Origin: Pseudoalteromonas sp.
GTDB lineage: Bacteria; Pseudomonadota; Gammaproteobacteria; Enterobacterales; Alteromonadaceae
Assembly (NCBI RefSeq): GCF_041629635.1
Contig: NZ_JBFKMX010000001.1
Coordinates: 7,863 to 71,862, forward strand
DNA length: 64,000 nt
Direction of reading: 5' to 3'
In this document: positions 4,284 through 24,117 of the stretch, piece by piece
Layout: the number at the start of each line of letters is the position of its first letter
Numbering within the stretch: the stretch's first letter is position 1
The notes under the pieces: model-generated
What the model saw: the letters and a program-made list of their open reading frames with translations, nothing else
What the model was told of the DNA's origin: nothing
Database searches by the model: none
Made by a program: the position numbers and the translations under genes

Positions 4284-4296
4284 TTGCATTTTGCAA
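4284..4296. promoter_or_regulatory. LuxO-type enhancer box
   Basis: Perfect TTGCA-TTT-TGCAA palindrome, intergenic, just before the RBS of the gene at 4310. Confidence 0.7.
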
Positions 4297-4309
4297 AATA
4301 GGAAGGGTA

Positions 4310-5797
4310 ATGGTTTTTACGATAGCGCAAATTAAAAAGCTTATTTACCTCGCTTTGTATACTATTTACGAGCGCTGGCAGCTAATTATATTGCCAATTA
4401 TTATTGTGCCCATTGCTGTTATCGGGATTGCACTTAACAGTCCAAAGCAATTCACCAACCACGCGACCATTTTGATAGAAGAATCTGCTCTTCTGAACCC
4501 ATTTTTAGATGAATTAGAATTCTCCTTTGAGTTGTCTTCACGGATGGATGCATTACGTACCTTAGTACTGAGCCGAAAAAATTTAACAGGAGTTGTGAAA
4601 GAAGTTGGGCTGGTAAAAAACCTTGATAATCAGCTTGAAGTTGAAAAAATGCAAGAAAAACTGGCCAATGCAATCTCTATTTCTCTGGTGGGAGATGAGC
4701 TAGTGCGAATTCACTTCAAGTGGGAAAAACGTGAAGAAATGAAACCTGTGCTTGAAGCAATGGTAGAAAAGTTTATTGAACGTTTACTCGCACCAACAAA
4801 AACATCTCTCGATACCTCAGAAATCTTTTTGAAAAATCAGCTGGAAGAAATGCGCGTCCAGCTAGAGGTAGCCGAAGATAAGCTGGCAAAATTCAAACGC
4901 GATAATCGTGCTGCACTGCCCGAATTATTGAACATCAATCAAGACACTTTGGTTCGCTTAGAACAAAAAAAACAGCAAAAATTAGTGGATTTAAGTGGTG
5001 CAAAAGCACGATTAGCTACATTGAAAAAACAACTTGCCAAAGCGAATCCCGTAAAAGGCCGTTTAGTGGACAGTATCATGCGAATTGAAGCGGATATTGC
5101 GCTATTACTTACCCGATATACTGACCAACACAGTAAAGTCCAAGCAAAACTGCGTGAATTAGAAACTTTAAAAATACGCAAGCAAGAAATAGAAACCCAG
5201 TCGCAACCATTTGAAGAAGCGGACCTTGATTCATTGTGGCAAATTGCAAATAGTTTACCGTTGGGTGCCAACGCCAAAGACAGTGCGCTGTTAGTATCAC
5301 AACTTATTACTTTAGAAGAAGCTGAAAATCAAGTTGCACAACTGAAAGAAGAACTTGAGATGTTGTCTGAGCAGCTTTCTGAGATTTCCACTCATCTATC
5401 AAGTTCCAGTGAAATTGATAAAACATTGCGTCAATTACAACGAGATTATCAAGTAAAACAAACACTGTATTCCGAAATGCTCGAACGATATGAGATGTCG
5501 AAAGTAACGGGTCAATTGGTTCGGTACGAAGGGCCTGACAAAGTAAAAATAATTGAGCGCGCTTACAGCCCAACTACACCAATCAATCAGTCACTTGTTA
5601 TTAATATATTTTTGGGGGTAGTACTCGGGCTTTTTAGCGCTGCGGCACTGACATTTATCGCCATGATCACCGACTTTAGATTACGTGATAAAAGCATGAT
5701 TGAAGCAATATCAGGAAAACGCGTCTTAACAACATTACCTATTGTGAAAGATGTATCTCAGTACATCACATCGACTCATCGGAGGCACTATGAATAA
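4310..5797 (+). CDS. Polysaccharide chain-length determinant, GumC/Wzz-Wzc type (SypO-like)
   Basis: N- and C-terminal TM helices flanking a long periplasmic coiled coil; KIIERAYSPTTP before the last TM. Confidence 0.9.
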   Translation: MVFTIAQIKKLIYLALYTIYERWQLIILPIIIVPIAVIGIALNSPKQFTNHATILIEESALLNPFLDELEFSFELSSRMDALRTLVLSRKNLTGVVKEVGLVKNLDNQLEVEKMQEKLANAISISLVGDELVRIHFKWEKREEMKPVLEAMVEKFIERLLAPTKTSLDTSEIFLKNQLEEMRVQLEVAEDKLAKFKRDNRAALPELLNINQDTLVRLEQKKQQKLVDLSGAKARLATLKKQLAKANPVKGRLVDSIMRIEADIALLLTRYTDQHSKVQAKLRELETLKIRKQEIETQSQPFEEADLDSLWQIANSLPLGANAKDSALLVSQLITLEEAENQVAQLKEELEMLSEQLSEISTHLSSSSEIDKTLRQLQRDYQVKQTLYSEMLERYEMSKVTGQLVRYEGPDKVKIIERAYSPTTPINQSLVINIFLGVVLGLFSAAALTFIAMITDFRLRDKSMIEAISGKRVLTTLPIVKDVSQYITSTHRRHYE

Positions 5798-8670: not shown

Positions 8671-8672
8671 CA

Positions 8673-8716
8673 TTGCAAAATGCAACAAGTAAATAAACTT
8701 CTGTTGCATTTTGCTA
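8673..8716. promoter_or_regulatory. Tandem LuxO-type enhancer boxes
   Basis: Perfect TTGCA-AAA-TGCAA (8673-8685) and TTGCA-TTT-TGCTA (8704-8716), centres 31 bp apart (about 3 helical turns). Confidence 0.75.
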
Positions 8717-8767
8717 TAATTCTTATCAGTTAACTTGTAACTAATTGAAATATTAATATATTAATTT

Positions 8768-8783
8768 TGGCATTGTATTTGGT
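8768..8783 (+). promoter_or_regulatory. Putative sigma54 promoter with variant -12
   Basis: TGGCAT-TGTAT-TTGGT: consensus -24, correct spacing, GG instead of GC at -12; downstream of the tandem boxes and 35 bp before ATG 8818. Confidence 0.55.
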
Positions 8784-8817
8784 TGTAATTAATCATAGTC
8801 ACAAAGAGGATTAGATT

Positions 8818-9144
8818 ATGAACAACCAACTACCAACAAAAGAACAAGACAACACACTAACAATTGAACTTCCTCACGATTTTTCAGGCTTGAATGTCGA
8901 CAAATATCGCGAACATTTTGAGTGTTTCGCGGCAACGCAACACGATGCTATTGTACTTGATTTTAGTAACACGGAGTTTATTGATTCATCGGGTATTGGC
9001 GCCATGGTTTTTTTGTTTAAACGAATTGAAAAGCGTGGCATCTCAATGATGGTAATGGACGTTACGGGTCAACCTGAAAAGTTAATGAAGCTGTTACGTG
9101 TCGACTCTACTATTCCATTTATTACTTCTGCTCCACTCATTTAA
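8818..9144 (+). CDS. STAS-domain anti-sigma-factor antagonist (SypA-like)
   Basis: IVLDFSNTEFIDSSGIGAMV with the phosphorylatable Ser; GAGGA RBS. Confidence 0.9.
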   Translation: MNNQLPTKEQDNTLTIELPHDFSGLNVDKYREHFECFAATQHDAIVLDFSNTEFIDSSGIGAMVFLFKRIEKRGISMMVMDVTGQPEKLMKLLRVDSTIPFITSAPLI

Positions 9145-9157
9145 TAGAGGCCGTACT

Positions 9158-10000
9158 ATGGATAAGTTCTTGTCTCTTGTTTGCGCAATTGGCCTTTGTT
9201 CTGGTTGCTCTTCTTGGCCTGAAGAAGGACGAGGGGGCTGGGCAGAGATTTACCATCCGGATGCGCCAATCAGCACAAATGGATTTGAAAATGCACTACC
9301 ATTTCAAGTAATGAATGAGTTTGAACATTTATCGTTGAAGCTCGAATGGTTGAAAAATCGTGGTATTAAGCATTGCATGCCTGGCCAAGTTTACCAAGCA
9401 GAATTAATGTTGACACGAATTAATCGCACGCTTTCGGCAGAAATGTATGCTGAGGCTCAACTTGATCTCCGTTCGTTTTATCACCAATTACATCAACTGG
9501 AAAATCATTTTGAACGGGTAATTAGTAATACCCATTGCGTGAGTGAAAACAAAACAGATGACACAAAATTGATTAAGAAACTCGAAGAATTATTGAACAG
9601 TGATAATCAATTTGCTTTTGATAGTTTTGAAGTCACCCCTAAGTATCGTATTCGGTTAGCGCAAAGTGCTGAATTACTCAAAATGTCACCCGAAACTCAA
9701 GTGTTATTAGTCGGTCATACGGACATTAAAGGTAGCAAAATCAGCAATTTTGAACTTGCTTACAAACGGGCTGAAAGCGTGAAAAGTTGGTTGACCTTGT
9801 ATGGCGTAAGGCCCGAGCTTGTGAGCACATTGGCACAAGGCGCGCTGCTTCCATTTACAGATGAGGAAGAGAGTGCGCAGAAACAGCATTCAGATCGCCG
9901 AGTCAGTGCTTATATTTTATCTACATCATCAAGAGCGGCAGAGCTAACTAAGGTAAAGCCGCTTAGTGAATGGACAAGTAAACTAGAACAGCAGGAGTAA
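9158..10000 (+). CDS. OmpA-family lipoprotein (SypB-like)
   Basis: Lipobox LCSG-C; C-terminal OmpA domain FAFDS...VGHTD...NFELAYKRAESV...DRRV; start moved to ATG 9158 behind GAGG. Confidence 0.85.
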   Translation: MDKFLSLVCAIGLCSGCSSWPEEGRGGWAEIYHPDAPISTNGFENALPFQVMNEFEHLSLKLEWLKNRGIKHCMPGQVYQAELMLTRINRTLSAEMYAEAQLDLRSFYHQLHQLENHFERVISNTHCVSENKTDDTKLIKKLEELLNSDNQFAFDSFEVTPKYRIRLAQSAELLKMSPETQVLLVGHTDIKGSKISNFELAYKRAESVKSWLTLYGVRPELVSTLAQGALLPFTDEEESAQKQHSDRRVSAYILSTSSRAAELTKVKPLSEWTSKLEQQE

Positions 10001-10005
10001 TGATT

Positions 10006-12093
10006 ATGAAATCACTTATCTACCTAATATTACTCTTTTTCATAGCGACTGGGCTTGCAGATGAAAGCAACGAAGAATCGGTAATTGAAGTCGGTAATAA
10101 AGTGTATTTCAATGTTCCAGGTGAAGCTGAGTTCGATAATCCATTTGAAGTAGATGACAAAGGTTTTGTTGATTTACCTGAAATAGGTAAAGTTAAATTA
10201 GCAGGAAAAACACCGAAGCGAGCTGAAGCTGAAGTTAAAATGAAACTGGCAGGTGTTTATAAAGCTTTGAGTAAATTTTACTTAGAGGTACGTGCACGTG
10301 ACTTGTTAGTGACCGTACTTGGCTATGTAAATAACCCGTCTCAAGTGAGTATTCCAACGAATGGCAATATTCAAATGGTTATTGCCAAAGCTGATGGAAT
10401 TAAGCCAGGTGCACAGTTAAACAAACTGCAAATCCACCGTGATGGCACAACCCTTACATTTGATTACAAAGCGTATCTTGATAGCGGCGATTTAGCCTTA
10501 CTACCTAAACTACGCTCAGGAGATACAGTGTTTGTTCCAGTGTCACCACTACTAGGTAATGTGCAAGTTGATTTTGATTCACAAACACTCTCAAGTGCAG
10601 GTGATGCTTATGGTCAAACTCAAGCTGTAACCTTGTTTGGTGAATTACATAGTCCTGGCAGTTTTTCATATAAACCTGATATGAATATTATTGATGCATT
10701 AATGCGTGCAGATGGCGTAACGCGCTATGCGGATGTCACTAAGATCCGCGTTATCCAAAATAATCAGCCAACTATTTTTGATTTAAAACATTACTTAGAT
10801 TCAGGAGATACCAGTTTATTACCAAAAATAGATGCGGGAACGACCATTTTTGTGCCAATTATGGTCGATGATGTAAATACTACTGCACGAACAGTTTATG
10901 TTATGGGTGAGGTACATAATCCGGGAGCATTCGAAATAAGTAGCGATATAGGTTTTCTTGATATTTTAGCGAATGCAGGCGGTCCAACACGCTTTGCAGA
11001 AACTCGTCAGATCAAAATACTCACATCTGCAGGCAAGAATGTTCTCTTTGATTTACAAGCTTACAGCGAAGGATATAGCTCCATGTCAATCCCAAATATA
11101 GCCCCTGGAGATGTCATTTTTGTACCTGAAAAAACGGATTTAAATGAGAAGAGCTGGCTTAAGGTGGCGCCTACTCGTGCAGTAAAAATTATGGGAGCAA
11201 TTCATCATCCTGGGCGTTATGAGTGGAGTAATGAAATGGACTTTACTGATTTATTTGCTCATGCAGGCGGTCCGACAAAAAGTGCCAATGTAAATGACAT
11301 TAAGATTATTCGCCAAGGTCAGTTGTTGCAACGTTTTAGCTTAGATGAATATGCAAATAGTGAAGACAATAACTACCCATTACCAAATATCATTGCTGGC
11401 GATACGATTATTGTTGAAGAATTACCACATGATCCGAAAGACAATAAATCTCAGTGGGTTCGCCAAGACGCAAAAAGCTCAATTTACATACTTGGTCAAG
11501 TGGGAGCTCCAGGTCGCTATGCTTTTGATAAATCTCTTCATTTTTTAGATATTATCTCAGCGGCCGATGGTCCAACAAATGATGCAGACTTACGAAATAT
11601 CCGGATCACTCATCGTAATGGCACGCAATCTCGCGTGAGTAAACTCAATTTAGCACTTTACTTTGAAACAGGGGACGAAACACTATTTCCGCGCGTATTA
11701 CCTGGTGACACCATTTTTGTGCCAGAAAAAAGCAAAGACTGGTTGCGCCAACCTAAAGATCAAGTGGTGCGTATCATGGGGGCAATTAAGCAACCGGGCC
11801 GTTATAGCTTTGACGATTCAATGACCCTGCTTGATATATTAGCAGAGGCGGGTGGACCAACATCTAATGCTCTAATAAGTAAAATCGTTGTAATTAATCA
11901 TGGCTGTTGTAAGGAACAATCTCGTCGCTTTGATTTAGAGAAATTTATCAAGCAGCCAAATTCAGCCAATGTACCATTACTGAGAGCTGGTGACACTGTG
12001 TACATTCCAGACCAAGGGCAAGACTTCGCACAACGTGCAAAAGATTCATTGGTCGATATATTAACGATAATTGCACTGGCGGTGAGCCTATGA
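10006..12093 (+). CDS. Polysaccharide export protein with multiple SLBB domains (SypC/Wza-like)
   Basis: Signal peptide, Poly_export domain, repeated V-x-G-x-V-x-x-PG...AGGPT...GDTIFVP SLBB units. Confidence 0.9.
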   Translation: MKSLIYLILLFFIATGLADESNEESVIEVGNKVYFNVPGEAEFDNPFEVDDKGFVDLPEIGKVKLAGKTPKRAEAEVKMKLAGVYKALSKFYLEVRARDLLVTVLGYVNNPSQVSIPTNGNIQMVIAKADGIKPGAQLNKLQIHRDGTTLTFDYKAYLDSGDLALLPKLRSGDTVFVPVSPLLGNVQVDFDSQTLSSAGDAYGQTQAVTLFGELHSPGSFSYKPDMNIIDALMRADGVTRYADVTKIRVIQNNQPTIFDLKHYLDSGDTSLLPKIDAGTTIFVPIMVDDVNTTARTVYVMGEVHNPGAFEISSDIGFLDILANAGGPTRFAETRQIKILTSAGKNVLFDLQAYSEGYSSMSIPNIAPGDVIFVPEKTDLNEKSWLKVAPTRAVKIMGAIHHPGRYEWSNEMDFTDLFAHAGGPTKSANVNDIKIIRQGQLLQRFSLDEYANSEDNNYPLPNIIAGDTIIVEELPHDPKDNKSQWVRQDAKSSIYILGQVGAPGRYAFDKSLHFLDIISAADGPTNDADLRNIRITHRNGTQSRVSKLNLALYFETGDETLFPRVLPGDTIFVPEKSKDWLRQPKDQVVRIMGAIKQPGRYSFDDSMTLLDILAEAGGPTSNALISKIVVINHGCCKEQSRRFDLEKFIKQPNSANVPLLRAGDTVYIPDQGQDFAQRAKDSLVDILTIIALAVSL

Positions 12094-12800
12094 AAATTAT
12101 TCCCAAACAGTATCAAGAGTTAGAAGTTATTTTTGATGCAATTAATCGAGAAAATGCACGCTGTATTGCGTTTGCTTCTCCATATGGACACGCTGGGGCT
12201 ACCTCTCTCGCTGTAAGTGTGGCAAGGCGCTTAAGTGGTCGTAATGAACGAGTGTTAGTAATCGATTTAAATACTTTCCATCCAATGTCTGACAAGGACT
12301 TGATAAGCATGCCAAACTCTTTGGCAAAATGGTCTTTTGTTGATATTAGTTGCCAATTGAATGCGCAAGTGATTGATAATTTTTACTTCTTAAGTATTAC
12401 TCAGCTACAAGATTTGACCTTAGTACGTGAAAAGGATGTATTCAACACAGCCATTTTGATGCTAAAACAAGAGTTTGATTATATTTTGTTTGATATGTCA
12501 CCGATTTGTAAAAAGCATCATGCGAATTTTCCTCTGCATTTAATAATTTCGGTTACAGATTTACTGTTATTAGATATTTCGCTTGGTAAAACGACACAAG
12601 ACACGTTAGATGCTGTAATTAATGAACTAGAGCAAGTAAATTGTAAACGTTATGAAATCGTAGTAAGTCAGATCTTTATGCCTCCCTTAGGTGATTGTTT
12701 AATTAAGAGTATCAATAGGCGATGTTATAAACTACCAAAACTGAGGCAATTTTTAACTAATTTAGTTAACAAACAGCATTGGTTATTCACTGGAGTATAA
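12090..12800 (+). CDS. BY-kinase/ParA-like P-loop protein (SypD-like), Walker A lacks Lys
   Basis: ASPYGHAGATSLA, VLVIDLN, FDYILFDMSP. Confidence 0.7.
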   Translation: MKIIPKQYQELEVIFDAINRENARCIAFASPYGHAGATSLAVSVARRLSGRNERVLVIDLNTFHPMSDKDLISMPNSLAKWSFVDISCQLNAQVIDNFYFLSITQLQDLTLVREKDVFNTAILMLKQEFDYILFDMSPICKKHHANFPLHLIISVTDLLLLDISLGKTTQDTLDAVINELEQVNCKRYEIVVSQIFMPPLGDCLIKSINRRCYKLPKLRQFLTNLVNKQHWLFTGV

Positions 12801-12802
12801 CT

Positions 12803-14272
12803 ATGAATGTATTGTTTTATCGTCGTTTCAGTTTAATCTGGTCAACTTTACATTCGGTGCGAGAAACGCTATTGACGCTGTTGGCTAAACTCGATGTTGA
12901 AAGTGAAGAGATTGATAACACAGGCTTAGTAGTGACGGAATATCTGACGAATTTAATACGTCATAGTGAAGGAGAAGATCAGGCTGTGACGTTAGTGATT
13001 GGTCGTACTTTAAATGCTATCAGGATTGAACTTGTTGACCCAACAGACTACTTTCATCCTACATTGTCTCGGTCGCATGCTACAGATATTGTTGATGGTG
13101 AGCTGCGTGAGGGAGGAATGGGACTTGCCTTGATAGCTCATTACTTTCCTGACTTTAATTATGTTTCTGAAGAAGGAAAAAATCATTTTAGTTTTGCGTT
13201 GTCACTTAAAAAAATTAAAAATCGAATTGTAATAATTGATGATGAAAATGCTAGTTTACAGCTGATCAAAGCGTTTTTAGAAAATGAATATGAATGTCAT
13301 GCATTCACAGATGAGCATGATGCTTATCAGTATTTAATGTCACACAATGTTGACCTTTTACTTATTGATATGAACTTAAATGCAATGTTAGCTGATGAAT
13401 TTATATCTAACATTAAACAATTAGAGCATCTAAATAATATAGGTATAGTCGTGATTTCGGGTGATAGCAGCCGAGAAACTATGCTCAAAGCACATTTATG
13501 CGGAGTAGATGATTATTTGATAAAACCTGTTAAAAAACAGCAACTTGAATTAGTGTGTGAACGGGTTAAAAGTCGCTGTGTTTCACGTTCGGTTAGTAAT
13601 GCTTGCACGGGTAATTCGGGTAAAAATACGGTGATAAATTGCGGCCAATTTAAAGTTATCCCGTATGGGAATGTGGTAATAGGGAGCGGTGGTGATGTGT
13701 TAATTCATCACACTACGGATAACAAGAACATTGTTTTCTTTGGTGATGTGATGGGACATGGAGCAACGGCAAATCGTGTTGCATTACAACTCAAGGGGTT
13801 TATAAAAGGGTTATTACAGTCCTCTTACCATTCGCTTGACGTATTTGTTAACTTTTTTGCGACGAGCATAGTTCAACAAGACTTTATGCAGCAAAGCCTC
13901 GTTACCTTTATTGCATTGGAAATATCGGGGGATCAGATCCGACTTGTTAATGCAGGACACCCCCTTCCGATCGTAATATCCAAAATACAAGGAGTGCGAA
14001 GTGTGTGCACATCCCAGCCTTTAGTAGGGCTTGTTTCAAACTATGTATATCAAAGTGAATTGATCCCCTTCTTGACAGGAGAATCATTGCTCTTAGCGAC
14101 AGATGGTTTCTTTGAAAACCATGAAAATTATGATGAACTAACACAATTAGTGAATGCGGTATACAGTACTTCAAGTCTTGAAAACTTATCTGACACAAAT
14201 GACTTTTGGTACAAAAGTTTACCTAGATTATCAAAAGAAATTGACGATTCGTCTCTCCTGGTACTTAATTAG
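12803..14272 (+). CDS. RsbW-like Ser kinase / receiver / PP2C phosphatase protein (SypE-like)
   Basis: TEYLTNLIRH and EGGMGL (HATPase); IIDD..LLLID..IKP (REC); GGD, GDVMGHG, TDG, DD (PP2C); start at ATG 12803 behind GGAG. Confidence 0.85.
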   Translation: MNVLFYRRFSLIWSTLHSVRETLLTLLAKLDVESEEIDNTGLVVTEYLTNLIRHSEGEDQAVTLVIGRTLNAIRIELVDPTDYFHPTLSRSHATDIVDGELREGGMGLALIAHYFPDFNYVSEEGKNHFSFALSLKKIKNRIVIIDDENASLQLIKAFLENEYECHAFTDEHDAYQYLMSHNVDLLLIDMNLNAMLADEFISNIKQLEHLNNIGIVVISGDSSRETMLKAHLCGVDDYLIKPVKKQQLELVCERVKSRCVSRSVSNACTGNSGKNTVINCGQFKVIPYGNVVIGSGGDVLIHHTTDNKNIVFFGDVMGHGATANRVALQLKGFIKGLLQSSYHSLDVFVNFFATSIVQQDFMQQSLVTFIALEISGDQIRLVNAGHPLPIVISKIQGVRSVCTSQPLVGLVSNYVYQSELIPFLTGESLLLATDGFFENHENYDELTQLVNAVYSTSSLENLSDTNDFWYKSLPRLSKEIDDSSLLVLN

Positions 14273-14307
14273 AAAGGGATTTGTTAAATGTGATCAGGAG
14301 GTTGCCT

Positions 14308-15729
14308 ATGCCAAATAAGATTTTAATTGTTGAAGATACAGAATCACTTGCGCTTTTGTACCAGTCTTACCTGATCCCAACAGGCATGCACTCGGATATT
14401 GCGTTTACAGGGCAAGAAGCGCTTAATTATTTGGAAAAGAATAAACCCGATTTGATCATGCTGGATGTGATGCTACCGGACATGAGTGGCATGGATATTC
14501 TAGCACAGCTTTCCGTTAATGACCGTCCCAAAGTGGTGGTATTAACAGCTCATGCTAGTAAAGAAATGGCTGTTGATGCGATTCATTATGGTGCCGCAGA
14601 CTTTATTGAAAAACCCGTTGATGCAGAGCGCTTTCGTATTACTGTTAACAATGCTTTGAAACTCAATTCACTAAGTAAAACGGTAGAAAAATATCAATCT
14701 CGTTATGAAAATGGTCGCTTTTGTGAACTAATTGGCACTTCGGCACCGATGCAAACGGTATATCAAATCATTAGCAATTCAGCAAAAAGTAAAGCCACTG
14801 TGTTTATTACTGGTGAAAGTGGAACAGGTAAAGAGCTTTGTGCACGCGCAATTCACCAATGTAGTGACCGCAGTAAACACCCCTTTATAGCGATTAATTG
14901 TGCTGCAATCCCAAAAGATCTGATTGAAAGTGAAATATTTGGTCATGTAAAAGGCGCATTTACAGGAGCGACTAACAACCGTGAAGGTGCGGCAGGGATG
15001 GCTGATGGTGGTACGCTATTTCTTGATGAACTGTGTGAAATGGATTTAAACCTACAAAGTAAACTATTGCGCTTTATACAAACGGGTTGTTTCCAAAAAG
15101 TAGGTAGCGAACAACTGCAACAAGTGAATGTACGTTTTGTATGTGCGACTAACCGCGATCCATGGCAGGAGGTACAAGCTGGGCGCTTTAGAGAAGATTT
15201 ATATTATCGCTTATATGTTATACCTGTGCAGTTGCCTCCGTTGCGCCAACGGGGTCGGGATGTCATTCAAATTGCAGAAGCGTTATTTGCACGTATTGCA
15301 AAAGAAGAAGGGCAAGCGTTTGATGGATTAAGTGATGATGCAAAACAACACCTAATGTCTTATAGTTGGCCTGGAAATGTGCGTCAACTGGAAAATATGA
15401 TTCGTAATACGGTGGTGTTGAATAATACCGCATGGATAGAAAAACAGATGTTTCCCCCTTTTCCACAAAGTCACGTGTCGCAAGAACCCTTTATGGATGA
15501 GAGCATGAGTGTGTCTGAGCAACTATCTACGCCTAGTTTTGAAACCAATAATTTACTTAGAAGCTCAGATATAGAGCCTTTATGGCTAGTTGAAAAACGC
15601 TACATTGAAAAGGCAATAGCAGCGTGTAACGACAATGTACCAAAAGCAGCAGCATTATTAGATATCAGTCCATCTACAATCTACCGCAAAATGAAAACAT
15701 GGGAGCAAATGTCTGCACAGCTCTATTAG
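14308..15729 (+). CDS. luxO: sigma54-dependent response regulator, LuxO-like
   Basis: REC, GESGTGKE, GAFTGA, HTH; NCAAIPKDLIESE, DELCEMDLNLQSKLLRFIQTG, ATNRDPWQEVQAGRFREDLYYRLYVIP and ISPSTIYRK closely follow Vibrio LuxO as recalled; AGGAGG RBS. Confidence 0.8.
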   Translation: MPNKILIVEDTESLALLYQSYLIPTGMHSDIAFTGQEALNYLEKNKPDLIMLDVMLPDMSGMDILAQLSVNDRPKVVVLTAHASKEMAVDAIHYGAADFIEKPVDAERFRITVNNALKLNSLSKTVEKYQSRYENGRFCELIGTSAPMQTVYQIISNSAKSKATVFITGESGTGKELCARAIHQCSDRSKHPFIAINCAAIPKDLIESEIFGHVKGAFTGATNNREGAAGMADGGTLFLDELCEMDLNLQSKLLRFIQTGCFQKVGSEQLQQVNVRFVCATNRDPWQEVQAGRFREDLYYRLYVIPVQLPPLRQRGRDVIQIAEALFARIAKEEGQAFDGLSDDAKQHLMSYSWPGNVRQLENMIRNTVVLNNTAWIEKQMFPPFPQSHVSQEPFMDESMSVSEQLSTPSFETNNLLRSSDIEPLWLVEKRYIEKAIAACNDNVPKAAALLDISPSTIYRKMKTWEQMSAQLY

Positions 15730-16730
15730 TTTAAATAAAGTTTAATTAACTGAATATATTGTGATTTTCCTGCATAGAATTGATGAAGTTGGCTGGTTGC
15801 ATTTTTGACCAGATAATTACGCTCTTGCTGGCTCATTAAAAGCGCCTCTCTTAATTTACTCACCAATGCTTGGTGCGATTGGTCGTCCGTTAATAGTCCA
15901 GTGTGGTTGTTTATGATAACAGAATCGATAGCACCTACTGCATTTGCGATACATAACACTTTATTGTCAATAGCTTCAAGCAAGACCATAGGTAACCCTT
16001 CCTCTCTAGAACAAATTACTAATATATCAACGTGCTGCCATAATTTTTGAGTCGATTTATGACCATGAAAAAGCGTATTGTTCGAAGCTTTTTTTTGTAA
16101 CTCAGCGATCATAGGTCCATCGCCATAAAGGTGAAATTTAATGTTCTCTTGATGTTGAAAATGAGTGGCCAATTTAATAAAACGTTCGGGTGCTTTTTCA
16201 TATGCTAAACGTCCAACAAAAGCGATATTCAGTTGTTTTTCGGGCTCTTTTGGATGTGGGTTTTTAGGCAAGATAAAATTAGCAATAAACTGGCCATTTT
16301 TAACCTTACTTTTGAGTTGATTTGCCACGACTAAGTTTTTTGAAAAGCCGCTGGTTATTTGGTCGAGCCAATTATAGAGCCTTATTCTGCCCGAACCTTT
16401 TTCGCCAGCATGATAGGTGGAAATACAAGTGTGACCAGTTATTTTACATGTAAGTCTACCAATAATACCTGCTTTGTAACCATGGGTATGTAATACATAG
16501 TTGTCACTATGTTTGAGGAAATGAAAAAGATCTAATGCACTACCGCCTAAACATTGATAAGGGCAGTTAAGCTCTGTCAATAAATCATAGAGCTGATGAT
16601 TGAGATGATCTTGATAAAAAAGAACACTTGTAGGCACATGTTTCGATTGCATCAATTTAACTAATTCAATAATGTGCGATTCAATGCCGCCAAATAGGCT
16701 AGAATCTAGAAAGAGTACAAGATTTCGCAT
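15726..16730 (-). CDS. GT4 glycosyltransferase (SypH-like)
   Basis: FGGIESH, HTHGYKAG, FVGRLAYEKAP, SREEGLPMVLLEA; start moved to ATG 16730 behind AGGAG. Confidence 0.9.
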   Translation of the reverse strand: MRNLVLFLDSSLFGGIESHIIELVKLMQSKHVPTSVLFYQDHLNHQLYDLLTELNCPYQCLGGSALDLFHFLKHSDNYVLHTHGYKAGIIGRLTCKITGHTCISTYHAGEKGSGRIRLYNWLDQITSGFSKNLVVANQLKSKVKNGQFIANFILPKNPHPKEPEKQLNIAFVGRLAYEKAPERFIKLATHFQHQENIKFHLYGDGPMIAELQKKASNNTLFHGHKSTQKLWQHVDILVICSREEGLPMVLLEAIDNKVLCIANAVGAIDSVIINNHTGLLTDDQSHQALVSKLREALLMSQQERNYLVKNATSQLHQFYAGKSQYIQLIKLYLN

Positions 16731-16755
16731 ATTTATCTCCTCTAAAAGGAACCCT

Positions 16756-17073
16756 ATGTTTAACCAAACAACCATAAAACAACTGGAAGCCGATGTTGGC
16801 CAAGAAGTACTGATCAAACTTTTTGCCGTTTTTGCTCAAGAAGCGACAAAACTAACCGAGCAACTTATGGCTTGCACATCTCTTGATGAAGAATGTGTAC
16901 GTTTAAGCCATAGCCTTAAAAGCTGCGCTCGTTCCTATGGTGCGGATCAGCTAAGTGCTCTTGCTGAAACCCTTGAAAATCTTGCAAAAAATAACGATGC
17001 AAGCTTCTTTAATGAACGTGCGCTTTTAGGTGGCATACTGGATGCGACCATGTCTGCAATGCCAATGCTTTAA
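16756..17073 (+). CDS. luxU: Stand-alone Hpt phosphotransfer protein, LuxU-like
   Basis: SHSLKSCARSYGADQL Hpt motif; N-terminus FNQTTIKQLEADVG resembles Vibrio LuxU; AAGGA RBS before ATG 16756. Confidence 0.75.
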   Translation: MFNQTTIKQLEADVGQEVLIKLFAVFAQEATKLTEQLMACTSLDEECVRLSHSLKSCARSYGADQLSALAETLENLAKNNDASFFNERALLGGILDATMSAMPML

Positions 17074-17960
17074 TGCACTTTTGCATTTAGGCTTAAAGAG
17101 TGCTCATTAGTGTTGGGTAACCACTGTTCAATAATATGTTTAAGCTGAGATTTATTATGCTTTCCGATTGATTGTTCTTTTTCTATGGCGCGTAAATCCA
17201 TGGCCTCAAATGCATCTGGAGTGAGACATACATCAAAAAACTTGTAGCCTAAGATATGCATAGCCTGGTCAAGTTGCTCTGTGGCAGCAAGTTGGTCAAC
17301 AGGGCTATGTTCAGGCGTTAAGTTTTCAATAAAGATGCGACAACCAGTGGTATTACATAATGCTTTTTGAATATCCCATAACATTAAGGGCGGCATTACA
17401 CTGGTTAATAAACTACCAGGACCTAATAAGATTAAATCAGCACAGTTTATTGCCTCAATGGCTTGCTGGTTAGCACTGACCTGTTTGGATAAACGCATGT
17501 TATTAGGAAAATGACTAAGTGTGTCAATATTGCATTCACCAAAAACCTCCTCTCCTGTAGAGGTTGTAGCAACTAAATCAACAGGCGTATTTGTCATTGG
17601 CAAAATAGTATGTTCAACCCCTAACATGCTAGAGAAAATTTTAACTGCATCGTTTGCGTTGTGTGTAATTTGGCACAGTGCGCACAGTAGAATATTGCCA
17701 AAACTGTGACCCTTCAAATCATTGTCTAATTCAAAGCGTTGTTCGGACAAGATTGATAACATCTGGTCTTGGCAGGCTAACGCACTAACGCAACGGCGAA
17801 TATCACCTAAAGCAATTTGACTTGGGTCTTGACGCAAACGTCCGGTGCTGCCGCCGTTGTCAGTTGTAGTTACGATTGCTGTCAGTGCACAAGGTATGTT
17901 TTTTAAAGCGCTTAACACTTGCGATAGACCATGTCCCCCGCCAATACACACAATATTCAT
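17070..17960 (-). CDS. yvcK: YvcK/GlmR (CofD-like) UDP-binding protein
   Basis: IGGGHGL, TTTDNGGSTGRLR, GDIRRC, GHSFGNI, LGPGSLLTS; start moved to ATG 17960. Confidence 0.9.
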   Translation of the reverse strand: MNIVCIGGGHGLSQVLSALKNIPCALTAIVTTTDNGGSTGRLRQDPSQIALGDIRRCVSALACQDQMLSILSEQRFELDNDLKGHSFGNILLCALCQITHNANDAVKIFSSMLGVEHTILPMTNTPVDLVATTSTGEEVFGECNIDTLSHFPNNMRLSKQVSANQQAIEAINCADLILLGPGSLLTSVMPPLMLWDIQKALCNTTGCRIFIENLTPEHSPVDQLAATEQLDQAMHILGYKFFDVCLTPDAFEAMDLRAIEKEQSIGKHNKSQLKHIIEQWLPNTNEHSLSLNAKVH

Positions 17961-17994
17961 ATTTCGCCCCCCCATCGGTGTGTATTGAAAAGGA

Positions 17995-18010
17995 TTCAAA
18001 TTGTGTACCA
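17995..18010 (-). promoter_or_regulatory. Putative sigma54 promoter of yvcK with variant -12
   Basis: Minus strand TGGTAC-ACAAT-TTGAA, GG-N10-GA. Confidence 0.5.
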
Positions 18011-18051
18011 AGATATAAAACGCGAAAACTAGGGAAAACATTAATTTTTAT

Positions 18052-18064
18052 TTGCATTTTGCAA
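18052..18064. promoter_or_regulatory. LuxO-type enhancer box between yvcK and the hybrid kinase
   Basis: Perfect TTGCA-TTT-TGCAA; reverse complement shares the 16-mer GCATTGCAAAATGCAA with 8670-8685. Confidence 0.75.
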
Positions 18065-18130
18065 TGCAGCTTGCGGGGTCATTCGCTAAACTTAATTTTA
18101 ACCTTCGACCAAAACTCACAAAGAGGTGTC

Positions 18131-20140
18131 ATGGGAAAACTTAGTGCCAATGCTACATTGCAATTACTAGAAGATCTTATTAGCAGTAAAAATGCATTTG
18201 AATTACTGATTAAATTGCAAATAGGCCTTCAGCCTATTGTCAGATTTTCAGAGATCTTGATTTTGACCCAAGATCATTCGCAACTGTGTGCTGTGGCAAG
18301 CACTTACGAACCCTTATCGGGGGCGTGTTTATTTAATAAAGAAGAGCTTTTTGAAAGCGGTTTTGAAGAACAGATATTAGTGGTCAATAACACTGAGTTA
18401 CCAGCAGATTGGCAATTACCAAACACAGGTAATAAAGCGGCTTTAATTCCCATTAATTTTGCTGGGCGGAAAGGTATATATATATTATTTTTGACGGAAG
18501 AGATGGTTGATGATTCACAGGTAAAAAGTAATCTAATGGCTAGTCTTATCGTTTTTCGTCTAGCTTTTTATCAATTAGATCAACAACATCAAACTTCCCA
18601 AATGCTACTCGACCGAACTTTTGCGCTAACGCAGAGCCAGCAACGGTTTCAAGCTTATGCCGAACTTGCTTCTGATTGGTTTTGGGAAACGGATGAAAGC
18701 ATGTGCTTTACCTATCTTTCTTTTACTGAACAAAGTAAACCCAGTAACTTTGAGAACTTTTTATACAAAAGTCCGTTAAATATTCGCAGTGACAGCGAAA
18801 GTACTCAATGTAAAAAGTGGGAACACTTTTTACATCTTGTGCGTAAACATTTAGACATTATTGATTTTGAGTTTGAGGCAATAAACAACCAAGGTCACAC
18901 GGTTTGGATATCAATCAGTGGTAAAGCAAAATTCAATGTGGACAATAGCTTTGCGGGGTATTTGGGCATCGCTAAAGACATCAGTTTCTCTAAGCAGCGT
19001 GAATCAGATTTAAAAATGGCTAAAGAGAAAGCTGAAAGTGCTAACGCTGCAAAATCACATTTTCTTGCTGTTATGTCTCATGAAATTCGTACGCCGATGA
19101 ATGCAATTCTGGGTATATTAGAGTTACTTGAAGACACAGACCCGAATGATAAACAACGCGAGTTAATTGAATTTATGCGTGGCAGTGCCCAGTTGTTGCA
19201 GGGGGTTATCAGTGATACATTGGACTTTGCAAAAATTGAATCAGGCACCCTTGCATTAGAAAGTAGTAATATTAATTTTCATAAGCTAATCAAGAATTTA
19301 GTTCAGCAATTCGAAACCCAAGCGATAAAAAAAGGCATCCATTTTAATGCTATTGTGGGTAATGGTGTACCCGAGCAGATTAATACCGATGGTGTTCGTT
19401 TGTCTCAGGTCTTACTTAATTTGTTGGGAAATGCATTCAAATTTACCTTAACGGGAGAGGTTTGCCTTGCGGTTAATCGCAGTGATACCGAATTGTTGAT
19501 ATCGGTAAAGGACAGCGGCATAGGTATCGAGCAAAGCCAAGTAGATAGTTTGTTTGAACCGTTTTCACAGTTGCATGATAAACAAATTGGTCGACAGCAA
19601 GGAGTTGGTCTTGGTTTAAGTATCACTAAACGCTTGCTTGAATTGATGAATGGGAAAATAGAATGCCACAGTGAAATTGGTGTGGGCACTGAATTTTCTG
19701 TTGCTATTCCATTGCAGTTGGAAGTAACCGATGAAAACCCAGAAGGGTTGGAATCTAAAAATATCAGTACACCGAGTTATCATATTTTGGTCGCTGAAGA
19801 TAACCCAGCAAACCAATTTATCATTAAAGCTATTTTGGAAAAACGCAACCATACAGTGTCACTTGCGGATAATGGTGAGCAAGCTGTTGCCGCAGTTAAA
19901 AAATCGCAATTTGATTTGGTGCTAATGGATATGGTGATGCCTGTAATGGATGGTGTAGTAGCGGCACGCACGATAAGAACAGAACTTGGCAGAATGGCAC
20001 CGCCTATCATCGCGTTGACTGCAAATGCTGGGTTAGCTGACAAAACCAAATGTTTAAATGCGGGCATGTTGGATGTACTGACAAAACCATTAAACAGCGC
20101 TTTGTTAGACGAAAAAATAAGGACCCTTGTCGGGACGTAG
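18131..20140 (+). CDS. Soluble hybrid sensor histidine kinase (GAF-like, PAS, HisKA, HATPase, REC)
   Basis: ELASDWFWETD PAS, MSHEIRTPMN H-box, N/G boxes, AEDNPANQ..LMDMVMP receiver; no TM helix and no Hpt; start moved to ATG 18131 behind GAGG. Confidence 0.9.
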   Translation: MGKLSANATLQLLEDLISSKNAFELLIKLQIGLQPIVRFSEILILTQDHSQLCAVASTYEPLSGACLFNKEELFESGFEEQILVVNNTELPADWQLPNTGNKAALIPINFAGRKGIYILFLTEEMVDDSQVKSNLMASLIVFRLAFYQLDQQHQTSQMLLDRTFALTQSQQRFQAYAELASDWFWETDESMCFTYLSFTEQSKPSNFENFLYKSPLNIRSDSESTQCKKWEHFLHLVRKHLDIIDFEFEAINNQGHTVWISISGKAKFNVDNSFAGYLGIAKDISFSKQRESDLKMAKEKAESANAAKSHFLAVMSHEIRTPMNAILGILELLEDTDPNDKQRELIEFMRGSAQLLQGVISDTLDFAKIESGTLALESSNINFHKLIKNLVQQFETQAIKKGIHFNAIVGNGVPEQINTDGVRLSQVLLNLLGNAFKFTLTGEVCLAVNRSDTELLISVKDSGIGIEQSQVDSLFEPFSQLHDKQIGRQQGVGLGLSITKRLLELMNGKIECHSEIGVGTEFSVAIPLQLEVTDENPEGLESKNISTPSYHILVAEDNPANQFIIKAILEKRNHTVSLADNGEQAVAAVKKSQFDLVLMDMVMPVMDGVVAARTIRTELGRMAPPIIALTANAGLADKTKCLNAGMLDVLTKPLNSALLDEKIRTLVGT

Positions 20141-20238
20141 CATGCACATTAATTAGCTCTGTTAGTGATTGCGTTTAACCTAGCAGAGTAGATCTAAAGC
20201 AAAATCATTTGAACACCCATACCTTAATTTTCATCTAG

Positions 20239-20412
20239 TTATGGTTCAGCATATTCTTCCTTAAGTTGTTGTAAAATGCGTTCTTGCTGTTTAAAGCTAA
20301 AGATCACTTTACGGCGGTAATCGATAGAACGATAGAACAGTTCTAAATCTATAAAGGGTCTCATAGCTTTTAATTTCTGGTCGATTGAAAACTGCTGTTG
20401 AGCGTTACGCAT
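20239..20412 (-). CDS. Unannotated 57-aa protein MRNAQQQFSIDQKLKAMRPFIDLELFYRSIDYRRKVIFSFKQQERILQQLKEEYAEP
   Basis: Translated by hand; ATG 20412, GGAG RBS 7 nt upstream, sigma54 promoter and enhancer boxes upstream; below the 60-aa ORF-track cutoff. Confidence 0.7.
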   Translation of the reverse strand: MRNAQQQFSIDQKLKAMRPFIDLELFYRSIDYRRKVIFSFKQQERILQQLKEEYAEP

Positions 20413-20446
20413 ATCATATCTCCAAATTTGCTCTTCAATTCTCTAA

Positions 20447-20462
20447 AGCAAAATATGACCCA
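20447..20462 (-). promoter_or_regulatory. sigma54 -24/-12 promoter of the 57-aa ORF
   Basis: Minus strand TGGGTC-ATATT-TTGCT, GG-N10-GC. Confidence 0.65.
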
Positions 20463-20512
20463 AATTTAACCTGTTGAATTTCTTTTACTAATATTTTCGT
20501 GAAGGGCTGTAA

Positions 20513-20537
20513 ATTGATTTTGCAATGCAAAATGCAA
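20513..20537. promoter_or_regulatory. Abutting pair of LuxO-type boxes
   Basis: ATTGA-TTT-TGCAA overlapping ATGCA-AAA-TGCAA by 1 nt; centre of the better box about 70 bp upstream of the -24 element. Confidence 0.65.
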
Positions 20538-20863
20538 AAAATTTAAGAGGACATACTAAAAATAAGATAAGTTGATATGCAATTAAAACGTCTAAGTTAA
20601 GCTTGTATTTATATCTATAATAACGATAAAAAGGAATTTATATGCACCATGTGATACAAGTAAAAAGCTTTAACACGCAGAGGTGCTCATTGCGTGACGG
20701 GATGTGTTCAGGGAATAACTGATAGATATAATTTAAGGAATGTTCTTTTTGAGTTTTACTAAGCGAGTTTACATCTTACTGGGGATGAATCTATCTAAAT
20801 ATCTTTCAATAAAAACACTCTAAAGAAGAGGGTACGTTGCACTAGCAAAATCATGATTATAAT

Positions 20864-22070
20864 TGTACTAGCTCAGACTTGATCTGACAGTTACCCGTTT
20901 TTCAATCGGTGACTGTCAGTTTAGATTTGAGCTAAATTCTTTTCTGCCCAAATGCGTTTTCCATCTTCTAATGTTGCCAATGGCGTTCTGCCACAGCACA
21001 TTTTTCCTTGATGAGTTCGGTCATTATTGTAATAAACCATCCATTCGTCCAGATCCTTTTGTAATTCTTCTAACGAGCTATACAGCTTTTTACGGAACGT
21101 TACCTGATAAAACTCATTCAATATCGTCTTATGGAATCGCTCACAGATACCGTTTGTCTGCGGTGACATGGCTTTTGTTTTTGTGTGATCGATATCATTA
21201 ATCGCCAGATATAACTGGTAATCGTGATGCTCGACTTTACCGCAATACTCTGTACCTCTGTCTGTGAGTATTCGCAGCATTGGCAGCTCATGCTGCTCGA
21301 AGTAAGGTAGAGCTCTATCGTTCAGTATGTCCGCTGCTGTAATTGGCTTTTGGTGGTGTAGAGCTTCGCGAATGCTACTTTGCTGTACGTATCAACGAAC
21401 GTTTGCTGGTAGATACGTCCAACACCTTTGAGATTACCCACGTAAAATGTATCTTGTGAGCCAAGGTATCCAGGGTGAGCTGTTTCGATTTCTCCGCAAG
21501 CTTCATCATCGTTTTTCTTTTTCTCAAGCGCTGCGATTTGGCTGTCAGTTAAGATAATGCCTTCGTTAGCTACTTTGTCTTCTAAGGCTTTCAGCCGTTT
21601 CTTTAAGTTCTCTAAGTCATGGCGTAACCATATTGAACGAACACCACTGCCAGATACGAACACACCTTGCTTCCTAAGCTCGTTACTGGTTCTGTGTTGG
21701 CCGTGGGCTGGATAATCCACTGCATACTTGATTACGGCTTGTTCTGTTACTTCATCAACTCTGTTTTTGATGTTTGGCGACCTACGACTTTTATCAATTA
21801 ACGCATCAAGTCCACCATCTTCTACTAGCTCTTGATATCGATAAAATGTGTCTCGTGAAACGCCCATGACTTTACAGGCTTTAGAAACTTTACCTAATTC
21901 TTCAGCAAGATTAAGTAAACCAGTTTTGTGTTTTATAATTGGGTTGTTAGTATGCAACATGAGAGTTACCACCTTTTTGGTTGTTTTGATTTAAGATTCA
22001 GCACCTTTATCAAAACGGGTAACTCTCAATTTTTCAAATCGAAATGTCAGATCAAGTCGAGACTAATTCA
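20864..22070 (-). mobile_element. IS481-family insertion sequence (ISSod13-like), 1207 bp
   Basis: Terminal IRs TGTACTAGCTCAGACTTGATCTGACA (20864-20889) and the reverse complement of 22045-22070 (TGAATTAGTCTCGACTTGATCTGACA); 7-bp direct repeat TTATAAT at 20857-20863 and 22071-22077. Confidence 0.9.
20921..21960 (-). pseudogene. IS481-family transposase with a 1-nt deletion
   Basis: MLHTNNPIIKHKTGLLNLAEELG..., GSQDTFYVG, LTDRGTEYCG, QTNGICERFHKT; frame breaks near 21347 where the expected ACCAAAACGCCA (TKTP) reads ACCAAAAGCCA. Confidence 0.85.
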
Positions 22071-23579
22071 TTATAATGATTCAAAAAACGCGATTTCAAA
22101 CTCTGTGCCTTTGCCTAACTCGCTATTTACAGTCACCTTTGCATTATGCTGTTGTAGAATACTATAAGAAATAGCCAAACCCAGTCCGGTGCCTTCACCT
22201 GGTGCTTTGGTTGTAAAAAATGGGGTGAAAATATCCGCCAAATGCGAAGGGTCAATACCTTCTCCTTGATCTTTTACCGTTACAATTATCTTATTTCGAT
22301 CTTTTTTACTGCTTATTGTAAGTGTACCGCCCTCTGGCATTGCGTGCTTGGCATTTACAAACAGGTTTATAAATACTTGCTGTAATTTCCCTGCGTTGCC
22401 AAGAATACTTGCTTCGGATAGTAGATCTTTAACTACCTGATGTTGATATTTGAATTCGTTACTCACCACATTCAGTGACTTTTCAATCACCAAGTTTAAA
22501 TCAATGCTGTCGAGTTCATCATTGTCCATGCGTGAAAAAGTACTTAAATCAGACACTATGTCTCTTACCCTGATAAGCCCTTGCACGGATGCAGCAAGAA
22601 TATCTTCACTATCTGTTAGTAAAAAATCACCGTCTAGAGTCTGCCAATGGCCCAGCATTTGCTTAACTTTGCTTTGATTGTCTAGGTTGGTATTTGTTAG
22701 TGGTGAAACAATTTCTGAAAAATCATTAAAATAATCTCGCATGGTATCAAGGTTACTTAGGACGAATCCAATGGGGTTATTAATTTCATGTGCTACTCCG
22801 GCAGCTAATTGCCCGAGCGATGCCAACTTTTCTTGTTGCAGTAATTGTTGCTGTGTTTGTTCTAACATTTTATTACTGGTTTCAAGCTCGATTAAGCGCT
22901 CTTGCAGCGTTTCTTCAGCTCGTTTACGTTCAAATGCCACTGCTAACATACTGCGAGAAGATTCCAACGTTTGTAGCTTTACAATATTGATATCTTCTTG
23001 CGATTCGTAAAGTAATATGACAAGGCCAACCGCTTTACCTGACGGTAAATCAAGGGTATAAACAGGAACAATTACGCTATAGACAAAGTGTGCGTTTGCA
23101 TCTTTAGAAATTTCGCTATGCTCAAATATTTGTGATTCGTTTTCATTCAAAACGTGATGATAGAGTTTGTTGTGATTAAGCTGACTCAGTACCTCTTTAA
23201 GGTGCTTTGCTAAAATCTTAGATTCTCGTTCGGACGCTTGGCAATAAGATTGAAATTGATGCAACGAAAGATCCCCATGAATTTCCACAAAAAAATTGTG
23301 TGCAACACTTATAAAATTGTTTGTACGCTCTAGGTAATTTGAAATAATTTTGTGTAAATTGGGTTGTCGCCATGTTTCAGCTAGTAAACCAGTTAAAAAT
23401 TCAAGCTGTTCCTGCTGAGAAGCGATTTCTTGCTTTGTAAGGTTAACCGCTTCTTCTTTCTGGTAGAGCTCTCGAGAAGAGTCTTCAAGTTGCTTTTCGG
23501 CCTCTTTGCGCGCCAAGCGTTCGCGCATTAAAATACGCTCTAGTGCGTCGATTTTGCCCTGGGCGTTAAAATTATTCAT
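22071..23579 (-). CDS. H-NOX-associated sensor histidine kinase
   Basis: N-terminal coiled coil [30 protein letters not shown]-box, [25 protein letters not shown]; overlaps the H-NOX stop codon. Confidence 0.9.
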
Positions 23580-24117
23580 TAAATGTTATTTCAATTTCAC
23601 AACAATCAGCACCTTGGTGCATACAGCTATTCTGCGAGACAGAGACTGATTCTTTAAAGTGTTTTGCGGCACCAAGGATTAGACCCTCAGACAAAAAACA
23701 AAGCTTACGAGGTGAACGGTAAAGCATGGTTAAGTTATCACCAGAATCTCCTCCGTAGCTAAATTCAGGTAATTGCGCTTCTTTATCAAGCTTTTTAACT
23801 TCAACGTGAATCAGCTCATCTACCATCATTAAAAATGTGCGAAGAGAAGGTGCATTTTGAGCTTCATCAGGTGCCAGAGACATCAATAGTGGGAATAAGT
23901 ACTCACCAAAAGTCCTAACTAGGTCGGGAATGGGAACTTCAAGTTGTTCTGATAAGTAACCGATAATGGCGAAAAGTTCAACGTCTTGGTACTGCTTGGT
24001 TGAGGTATAGATCCCATGCGACTCAAGTGTATTGTTGGTCAGCGCTTCATCCCATAATTGATAACCATGGTTTTCTTCTACAAATTCCTGTAGTGCATTA
24101 AAAATTGCTCCCTTCAT
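23572..24117 (-). CDS. Heme NO/O2-binding (H-NOX/HNOB) protein
   Basis: MKGAIF start, FGEYLF, proximal His in IHVEV, conserved Pro, YRSPR (YxSxR) motif, C-terminal CMHQGADCC. Confidence 0.9.
   Translation of the reverse strand: MKGAIFNALQEFVEENHGYQLWDEALTNNTLESHGIYTSTKQYQDVELFAIIGYLSEQLEVPIPDLVRTFGEYLFPLLMSLAPDEAQNAPSLRTFLMMVDELIHVEVKKLDKEAQLPEFSYGGDSGDNLTMLYRSPRKLCFLSEGLILGAAKHFKESVSVSQNSCMHQGADCCEIEITFNE

Follow-up and report, generated by a model that had tools for sequence, protein, structure and literature searches.

We analysed the regulatory end of a polysaccharide locus in a Pseudoalteromonas genome, where the genes of a predicted phosphorelay alternate strand by strand with a glycosyltransferase gene and a yvcK gene, so that the two minus-strand genes may form an operon split by a gene on the opposite strand. 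The window, that is the whole stretch of 64,000 nt that was analysed, covers positions 7863-71862 of contig C1 in a 4.0-Mb assembly, and its genes were mapped by listing the open reading frames and by reading the sequence directly. A gene for a LuxO/SypG-family sigma54-dependent response regulator (14308..15729, plus strand; ATG at 14308, TAG at 15727-15729) ends a sypA-E-like block on the plus strand. It is followed on the minus strand by a gene for a SypH-like GT4 glycosyltransferase (GT; 15726..16730; ATG at 16730, TAA at 15728-15726; Pfam Glycos_transf_1, 2.5e-27), on the plus strand by one for a LuxU-like, stand-alone histidine phosphotransfer (Hpt) protein of 105 residues with the histidine motif HSLKS (16756..17073; ATG at 16756, TAA at 17071-17073; Pfam Hpt, 3e-9), and on the minus strand again by one for a YvcK/CofD-related protein (17070..17960; ATG at 17960, TAA at 17072-17070; TIGR01826). 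A plus-strand gene at 18131..20140 then encodes a hybrid histidine kinase with HisKA, HATPase and REC domains and without an Hpt domain (Pfam), and it holds the same position in related loci.

The junctions between these genes are extremely tight. The stop codons of the regulator and GT genes overlap at 15726-15729, and those of the Hpt and YvcK genes at 17070-17073; a simple hairpin scan of the window found no terminator-like hairpin at either of these convergent junctions. The start codons of GT and Hpt face away from each other across a gap of 25 bp (16731..16755), which holds only two back-to-back ribosome-binding sites, CTCCT at 16737-16741 (AGGAG when read for GT) and AAGGAA at 16746-16751 for Hpt, and into which a promoter would not fit. 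An earlier note on this DNA had described the same alternation as luxO(+), GT(-), luxU(+), yvcK(-), with shared stops, a 25-bp head-to-head gap and convergent junctions too tight for terminators, and our reading of the sequence agrees with it on all of these points. Genes on one strand thus flank a gene on the other with neither a terminator nor space for a promoter between them, which is the structure looked for in a non-contiguous operon. Because the start gap is only 25 bp, the GT mRNA must begin inside or beyond the Hpt gene and the Hpt mRNA inside or beyond the GT gene. A head-to-head antisense overlap of their 5' regions therefore follows from the anatomy and is unavoidable, provided that both genes are expressed, as their conservation indicates.

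To see how stable this layout is, we compared 45 loci, the window included (single loci are cited below by L numbers); the regulator gene had been located in other Alteromonadaceae and, within Pseudoalteromonas, in 48 of the 140 species genomes. The order regulator(+), GT(-), Hpt(+), YvcK(-), kinase(+) occurs in 37 of the 45, from 34 Pseudoalteromonas species and three other genera, and among the loci sharing it the identities of GT, Hpt and YvcK go down to 31-48%. The GT/Hpt start gap measures 20-27 bp in 30 of 36 loci (-2, 1, 32 and 46 bp in others, and one locus has a broken GT), with a CTCC..AGG core conserved in the gap of related loci, and the Hpt and YvcK stops lie -66 to +5 bp apart in 36 of 36. 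The regulator and GT stops are -38 to +39 bp apart in 34 of 36 loci, the exceptions being L161, with a 566-bp insert, and L158, in which a 2187-bp insertion carries two extra response-regulator genes (3174-5090); in L149 a strong bidirectional terminator stands between regulator and GT (about 2926-2966). Since the regulator/GT junction accepts a terminator, DNA and even genes, the invariant core is limited to GT(-)/Hpt(+)/YvcK(-). With order and geometry kept across the loci, the alternating layout is more than chance. A crude whole-genome map of open reading frames, with starts set to the longest frame, gave at most one other alternating run of four genes in the genome and placed about 16% of convergent pairs at a gap of 5 bp or less, and these values must be read with the knowledge that the map missed this very locus and is unreliable for the rarity of tight alternating runs.

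Departures from the layout are also on record. The GT frame of L163 is interrupted, and a subclade nested in the alternating group (L135-L141) is without GT, Hpt, YvcK and kinase genes downstream of the regulator; together with L149 and L158, these natural variants will be useful for comparative tests. In Vibrio and in a set of Alteromonadaceae loci that we call type A, the order is sypA-D, kinase, sypE, sypG and GT on a single strand. In the type A loci L118, L119 and L124 a yvcK homologue lies directly upstream of sypA on the same strand, so that yvcK accompanies LuxO/SypG loci in three kinds of arrangement.

The clearest promoter signal at the locus belongs to yvcK. A minus-strand sigma54-type -24/-12 element, TGGTACACAATTTGAA (18010-17995), starts 50 nt before the yvcK ATG. 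Of 35 loci, 32 carry an equivalent element 48-56 nt before this ATG and another has it at 73 nt, making 33 of 35; the spacer sequence has diverged among species, a pattern that genuine promoters show. Upstream of it lies an exact LuxO-type enhancer box, TTGCATTTTGCAA (18052..18064), and a box with at most one mismatch occurs upstream of yvcK in 27 of the 35 loci, mostly 92-150 nt before the ATG and 238 nt before it in two. The boxes of the locus match exactly the UAS-LuxO (the LuxO upstream activating sequence), TTGCAWWWTGCAA or TTGCA-W3-TGCAA, as quoted in PMC10162802, and here too they stand upstream of sigma54 promoters. Of 15 exact copies in the genome four fall in this locus, about five being expected genome-wide. 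We regard it as highly probable that yvcK is under sigma54/LuxO-type control, and the sigma54 promoter proposed for yvcK in the earlier note is supported by a conserved -24/-12 element with a LuxO-type box upstream. Upstream of the yvcK genes of type A loci we found no convincing LuxO box or sigma54 element. The -12 motif reads TTGA(A/T) in the window and in L116, L117, L120 and the L131-L134 group (TTGT in L133 and L134), that is, in the window's clade and three other genera, and TGCT in most other Pseudoalteromonas; TTGA is a lineage-specific variant at a nearly invariant sigma54 position.

The inner genes of the block look different. Upstream of GT, in the 340 nt composed of the gap, the antisense strand of Hpt and the 3' end of yvcK, no sigma54 or sigma70 consensus was found; the few similar motifs vary in position, and most loci have none. 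The best sigma70-like score there is 8.10 versus 8.23 in control antisense tiles (p = 0.80), and the score upstream of Hpt, inside the 5' region of GT, is 8.76 (p = 0.0007 versus controls), with 59% versus 35% reaching 9 of 12 consensus positions, the species in both tests being non-independent. Terminator-like hairpins within 150 nt after the stop codon are scarce throughout, with 2 of 34 loci for the regulator, 4 of 34 for GT, 2 of 34 for Hpt and 2 of 34 for YvcK, both of the last being weak. In the window itself a candidate weak sigma70 promoter for Hpt lies on the plus strand within the GT 5' coding region (16646..16675), which can be read as TTGCAT-17-TAATGT or, in another register, as ATTGCA-16-AATAAT, with 6 to 8 of 12 consensus positions, and it is altered in the closest relatives L131-L133. 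As an observation apart, sigma70-like consensus matches are depleted over window positions 8000-21000, with 22 matches versus 39.2 +/- 5.3 in shuffled sequences.

The earlier note had supplied luxU either by read-through from luxO or from TTGCAT-17-TAATGT at 16647-16675. The idea of a promoter inside GT gains from the sigma70-like enrichment, which comes from other clades, and the particular motif was rejected, with only 6 of 12 positions and with changes in L131-L133. Read-through across 1 kb from the regulator is less favoured than an own Hpt promoter, because of the sigma70-like enrichment, the variable regulator/GT junction and the terminator of L149. For the same junction, the claim that the yvcK transcript runs on into luxO did not hold as a conserved property, given the L149 terminator and the insertions of 566 and 2187 bp in two species.

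Some properties of the presumed antisense RNAs bear on whether a transcript could cross the spacer. The RNA antisense to Hpt has a C/G ratio of 0.88 and is not C-rich, so that an obvious Rho loading site is not predicted, this ratio being a heuristic only; the RNA antisense to GT does hold a C-over-G stretch. Relative to long open reading frames in the genome, sense-strand GC skew stands low in GT (5.6th percentile), Hpt (9.5th) and YvcK (14.7th), which makes their antisense RNAs poor in C; in the adjoining regulator, kinase and sypE genes it is average or high. Replication-strand effects and the small size of the genes make this skew evidence weak. We also considered a translated antisense bridge over Hpt and rejected it, because the longest stop-free antisense frame has 40 codons and ribosomes cannot cover the spacer.

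What the genes encode determines how the layout may work, and the names given to them needed revision. The regulator has REC, sigma54-interaction AAA+ (with GAFTGA) and HTH_8 domains (Pfam), and it groups with LuxO and SypG and not with NtrC-type regulators. It scores 666.8 bits against the LuxO model NF041946, below the cut-off of 800; in our sample of the order, Vibrio LuxO scores 843-870 bits and Vibrio SypG about 543-618 bits, and the Vibrio genomes sampled contain a true LuxO and usually a SypG besides. The regulator shares more with Vibrio LuxO (55-56% identity) than with Vibrio SypG (46-48%), and it is the only one of its kind in the genome, the next-best paralogue reaching only 376 bits. 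In a maximum-likelihood tree the regulators of all alternating-layout loci form one clade with 100% support, which joins Vibrio LuxO and a clade that includes SypG in a three-way polytomy. The Hpt protein has 49 bits against the LuxU model NF041948, below the cut-off of 140, in spite of its Pfam domain, and the YvcK protein has 266 bits against TIGR01826, above the cut-off of 196. Among the names used in the earlier note yvcK can thus be kept, and luxO and luxU, both under their model cut-offs, call for qualification.

The genes upstream show the setting. Genes for a Wzy-like protein, an acetyltransferase, a GT, a chain-length protein and a priming transferase are followed by STAS (SypA-like), OmpA (SypB-like), SypC-, SypD- and SypE-like genes, and this SypA-to-SypE synteny stands beside the sigma54 regulator and GT4 genes, the regulator holding the position of SypG. 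The GT shares 34-36% identity with the GT encoded next after sypG in Vibrio, and its N-terminus is conserved from the first residues. On this gene content we read the region as the regulatory end of a syp-like biofilm-polysaccharide locus, and a fair name for the regulator is a LuxO/SypG-family regulator with predicted LuxO-type DNA recognition that would control this locus. No Rfam family was matched in a scan of the window, no Qrr gene was found there or in the genome, where the best Qrr match has 19.8 bits versus a gathering score of 50, and the SypG enhancer motif TTCTCANNNTGMDWN has no match in the window. The so-called luxU is a stand-alone Hpt protein, probably the relay that links the regulator to the hybrid kinase, which lacks an Hpt domain; the kinase at 18131-20140 is its likely phosphodonor. 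SypF of V. fischeri carries its own Hpt domain; among the relatives, L122 has an Hpt domain adjacent to the kinase match. Following the example of Vibrio, a 2018 survey of quorum sensing in Pseudoalteromonas (PMC6275029) counted the "luxO" of this family among quorum-sensing regulators, and the locus context points to polysaccharide control and not to quorum sensing.

From the observed layout and its conservation, the sigma54 element with its box and the scarcity of terminators, we infer co-transcription of yvcK and GT, an internal Hpt promoter and possibly a regulatory effect. The hybrid kinase would pass phosphate through the Hpt protein to the LuxO/SypG-family activator, as the domain content suggests, and the activator, bound to TTGCA-W3-TGCAA boxes, would turn on the sigma54 promoters of the locus, including that of yvcK. 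The yvcK transcript would then cross about 340 nt antisense to Hpt and provide the mRNA for GT, so that Hpt would lie embedded in the unit on the other strand. We consider yvcK-GT a probable non-contiguous operon in structure, because the sole conserved promoter signal of the strand is at yvcK and neither terminator nor promoter signals lie between the two genes. Since no promoter-like sequence was detected upstream of GT and a hairpin follows yvcK in just 2 of 34 loci, the yvcK transcript is the one most likely to express GT. Co-expression is also sensible: NCBIfam names YvcK-family proteins UDP-GlcNAc-binding, and GT belongs to the same polysaccharide locus. For co-transcription itself, the evidence leaves us evenly balanced or leaning slightly in its favour.

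The Hpt gene would be transcribed from its own modest sigma70 promoter within the first 100-300 bp or so of GT coding sequence, so that its mRNA overlaps that of GT head to head. Whenever the activator fires, RNA would then be made, and polymerase would travel, along the antisense strand of its own phosphodonor gene, a cis-antisense negative feedback on the relay. The Qrr small RNAs of Vibrio feed back on luxO, which is similar in logic. In the window, and not in all species, the yvcK transcript could extend further into the regulator gene. As a whole, a yvcK-GT non-contiguous operon antisense to Hpt, with the Hpt promoter inside GT, is the best explanation that we have, and we would put its being right and its being wrong on an equal footing; that the antisense has a physiologically meaningful effect is possible but rather doubtful.

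Several points weigh against this reading. The -12 of the yvcK promoter is TTGA and not TTGC in the window's clade, and the same clade has no sigma70-like motif of at least 9 of 12 positions upstream of Hpt, except for a TG-extended 9-point one in L132. Consensus scans may leave room for a weak or non-consensus GT promoter inside Hpt, and an untranslated stretch of 340 nt is a potential Rho target in a gammaproteobacterium. A synonymous-site scan of the four genes in about 30 species pointed to no patch of constraint such as embedded signals would leave; its sole window with z > 3, at YvcK codons 241-256 (z = 3.6), reflects, judged by eye, clade-shared coding sequence and not a signal. The species statistics rest on phylogenetically non-independent samples, and the tight packing could be a frozen rearrangement. 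Authors in the field hold that non-contiguous operons are not computationally predictable (PMC11034616).

The packing as a frozen relic is central to the chief competing explanation, in which the four genes are independent, bounded units. GT and Hpt would have weak promoters in each other's coding sequence, Rho or poor elongation would end the transcripts soon after the stop codons, and the antisense would be limited to short 5' leaders without a regulatory role; the layout would go back to an old inversion or insertion, kept because any breakpoint hits a gene. The single clade formed by the regulators fits such a single origin, convergent pairs within 5 bp are common in the genome on the crude map, and the sigma70-like motifs for Hpt within GT, the terminator tolerated in L149 and the synonymous sites, at which no constraint was detected, are all in keeping with it. 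What speaks for the yvcK-GT operon instead is that the promoter-like signal upstream of GT does not exceed the antisense background, that the conserved sigma54 promoter exactly heads the minus-strand pair, and that the start gap and the Hpt/YvcK junction have stayed tight at such low protein identity and with almost no excess sharing of synonymous codons, while the regulator/GT junction, by contrast, has varied. We judge independent units to be unlikely, though they are the most serious of the competitors. The most extreme sceptical view, that the GT or Hpt frame is not a functional gene and nothing needs explaining, could appeal to the interrupted GT frame of L163, but both frames are intact, have significant Pfam matches and conserved N-termini, and persist in at least 35 species at 31-86% identity, which makes it hardly credible.

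A bolder alternative has two fully interleaved non-contiguous operons, with one sigma54 activator driving mutually antisense transcripts from both ends of the five-gene block. A control region of the sypA type lies on the plus strand at 8673..8783, with one box at 8673-8685, another at 8704-8716 and a sigma54-like element at 8768-8783, and the plus-strand unit whose last gene is the regulator probably begins here. From there the transcript would read on through antisense GT, Hpt and antisense yvcK into the kinase, the yvcK-GT unit would enter the antisense strand of the regulator, and the two strands would repress each other. The gap between sypE and the regulator is 35 bp, from which the regulator is probably co-transcribed from the sypA sigma54 promoter; both promoters have LuxO-type boxes, and both window junctions are without terminator-like hairpins. 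But the C-over-G stretch, of a kind preferred by Rho, lies in 1 kb of untranslated antisense GT RNA that this transcript would have to pass, the L149 terminator and the insertions of L158 and L161 leave regulator/GT read-through unconserved, and the sigma70-like motifs upstream of Hpt suggest that it has its own promoter. Two such operons are accordingly improbable in our estimation. If they were real, switching on the polysaccharide would make full-length antisense RNA to the Hpt relay gene, and in this species also to the activator gene, a hard-wired cis-antisense counterpart of the Qrr feedback on luxO in Vibrio, conserved across an Alteromonadaceae clade.

The yvcK-GT reading can be compared with several known systems. 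Non-contiguous operons are exemplified by menE-menC-MW1733-ytkD-MW1731 of Staphylococcus aureus, and the atlas for that species lists 18 on the chromosome (PMC7154746, PMC11034616); in such operons the overlapping mRNAs repress each other, by transcriptional interference and RNase III cleavage. As in those cases, related genes on one strand (yvcK and GT) are split by an opposite gene, with no terminator or promoter space; there the architecture yields two fully overlapping mRNAs, as it would here. Unlike those cases, the present one comes from a Gram-negative gammaproteobacterium with active Rho, its operon promoter is presumed to be sigma54-dependent, the embedded gene encodes a phosphorelay protein that would feed the activator of that promoter, and the alternation extends over five genes. 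In the excludons of Listeria, neighbouring genes have long overlapping 5' or 3' untranslated regions (PMC7154746); the long transcript represses the oppositely oriented neighbour, and mutually exclusive expression, RNase III processing and opposing functions go with it. The likeness lies in starts 25 bp apart, which make each mRNA leader antisense to the 5' end of the other gene, and in convergent genes without terminators; it is a likeness of gene order, and GT and Hpt, unlike the partners of excludons, are not obviously antagonistic.

Closer relatives are found in Vibrio. The Vibrio luxO loci have luxO(+), luxU(+) and yvcK(-), with luxO and luxU on one strand and -1 to 26 bp apart, and they share with the present locus the regulator family, a LuxU-like Hpt gene followed by a convergent yvcK, and the identical box TTGCAWWWTGCAA. 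They differ in that here an opposite-strand GT splits the pair, the boxes are concentrated at genes for polysaccharide and a Qrr gene was not found; for Vibrio yvcK, the upstream 400 nt gave no LuxO box or plausible sigma54 element. The V. fischeri syp locus has the same succession of STAS/SypA, OmpA/SypB, SypC, SypD, SypE, sigma54 regulator and GT4, with sigma54 promoters and enhancer boxes before its polysaccharide operons and an H-NOX/kinase pair nearby. In the Vibrio syp loci examined, as in type A Alteromonadaceae, the syp genes are all on one strand, unlike here; the absence of the SypG motif and the low identity to Vibrio SypG set the present locus further apart.

Other features around the block deserve mention for future work. 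A frame of 57 codons, MRNAQQQF...EEYAEP (20240-20537, minus strand), is preceded by a good sigma54 element, TGGGTCATATTTTGCT (20462-20447), together with a LuxO-type box that is nearly perfect (20525-20537); its peptide is 82-88% conserved in the sister species L131-L133, and it looks like a further target of the same activator. A sigma54-like element, TGGCGCTAATATTGCG (4200-4215), has an exact LuxO-type box downstream of it (4284-4296); the box ends only 14 bp ahead of the start codon of the gene for the GNVR chain-length protein, an unusual position for an enhancer. Another exact box, TTGCATAATGCAA, lies at C1:6111, 1.75 kb upstream of the window start, and presumably serves another operon of the locus. 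An H-NOX gene and a non-hybrid histidine kinase gene adjoin the locus (22071-24117, minus strand), as they do in L005 and L116, and the pair may feed a nitric-oxide signal into the Hpt relay, by analogy with HahK in V. fischeri. Between the hybrid kinase and this pair a transposase/integrase-core-like fragment is present (20921-21280, minus strand), which is not at this place in L005.

The architecture described here is of known kinds, the non-contiguous operon and the excludon, and the present locus is a candidate member of them. What would be new in comparison with described cases is a Gram-negative lineage with Rho, a sigma54-dependent operon promoter and an embedded gene that belongs to the relay controlling that promoter. 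If the proposal is true, comparative genomics can nominate non-contiguous operons, which the field considers to be discoveries of transcriptomes only, by three signals: junctions of fixed geometry, a promoter footprint at one end and an inner gene that lacks promoter signals. Whatever the transcripts look like, the re-labelling of the "luxO/luxU" genes of Pseudoalteromonas as probable regulators of a syp-like locus, acting through LuxO-type boxes and without Qrr genes, is relevant to published quorum-sensing schemes (PMC6275029). If read-through from yvcK into GT is true, these bacteria would have a conserved Gram-negative non-contiguous operon with an embedded relay gene, and with it a feedback loop built from gene order alone.

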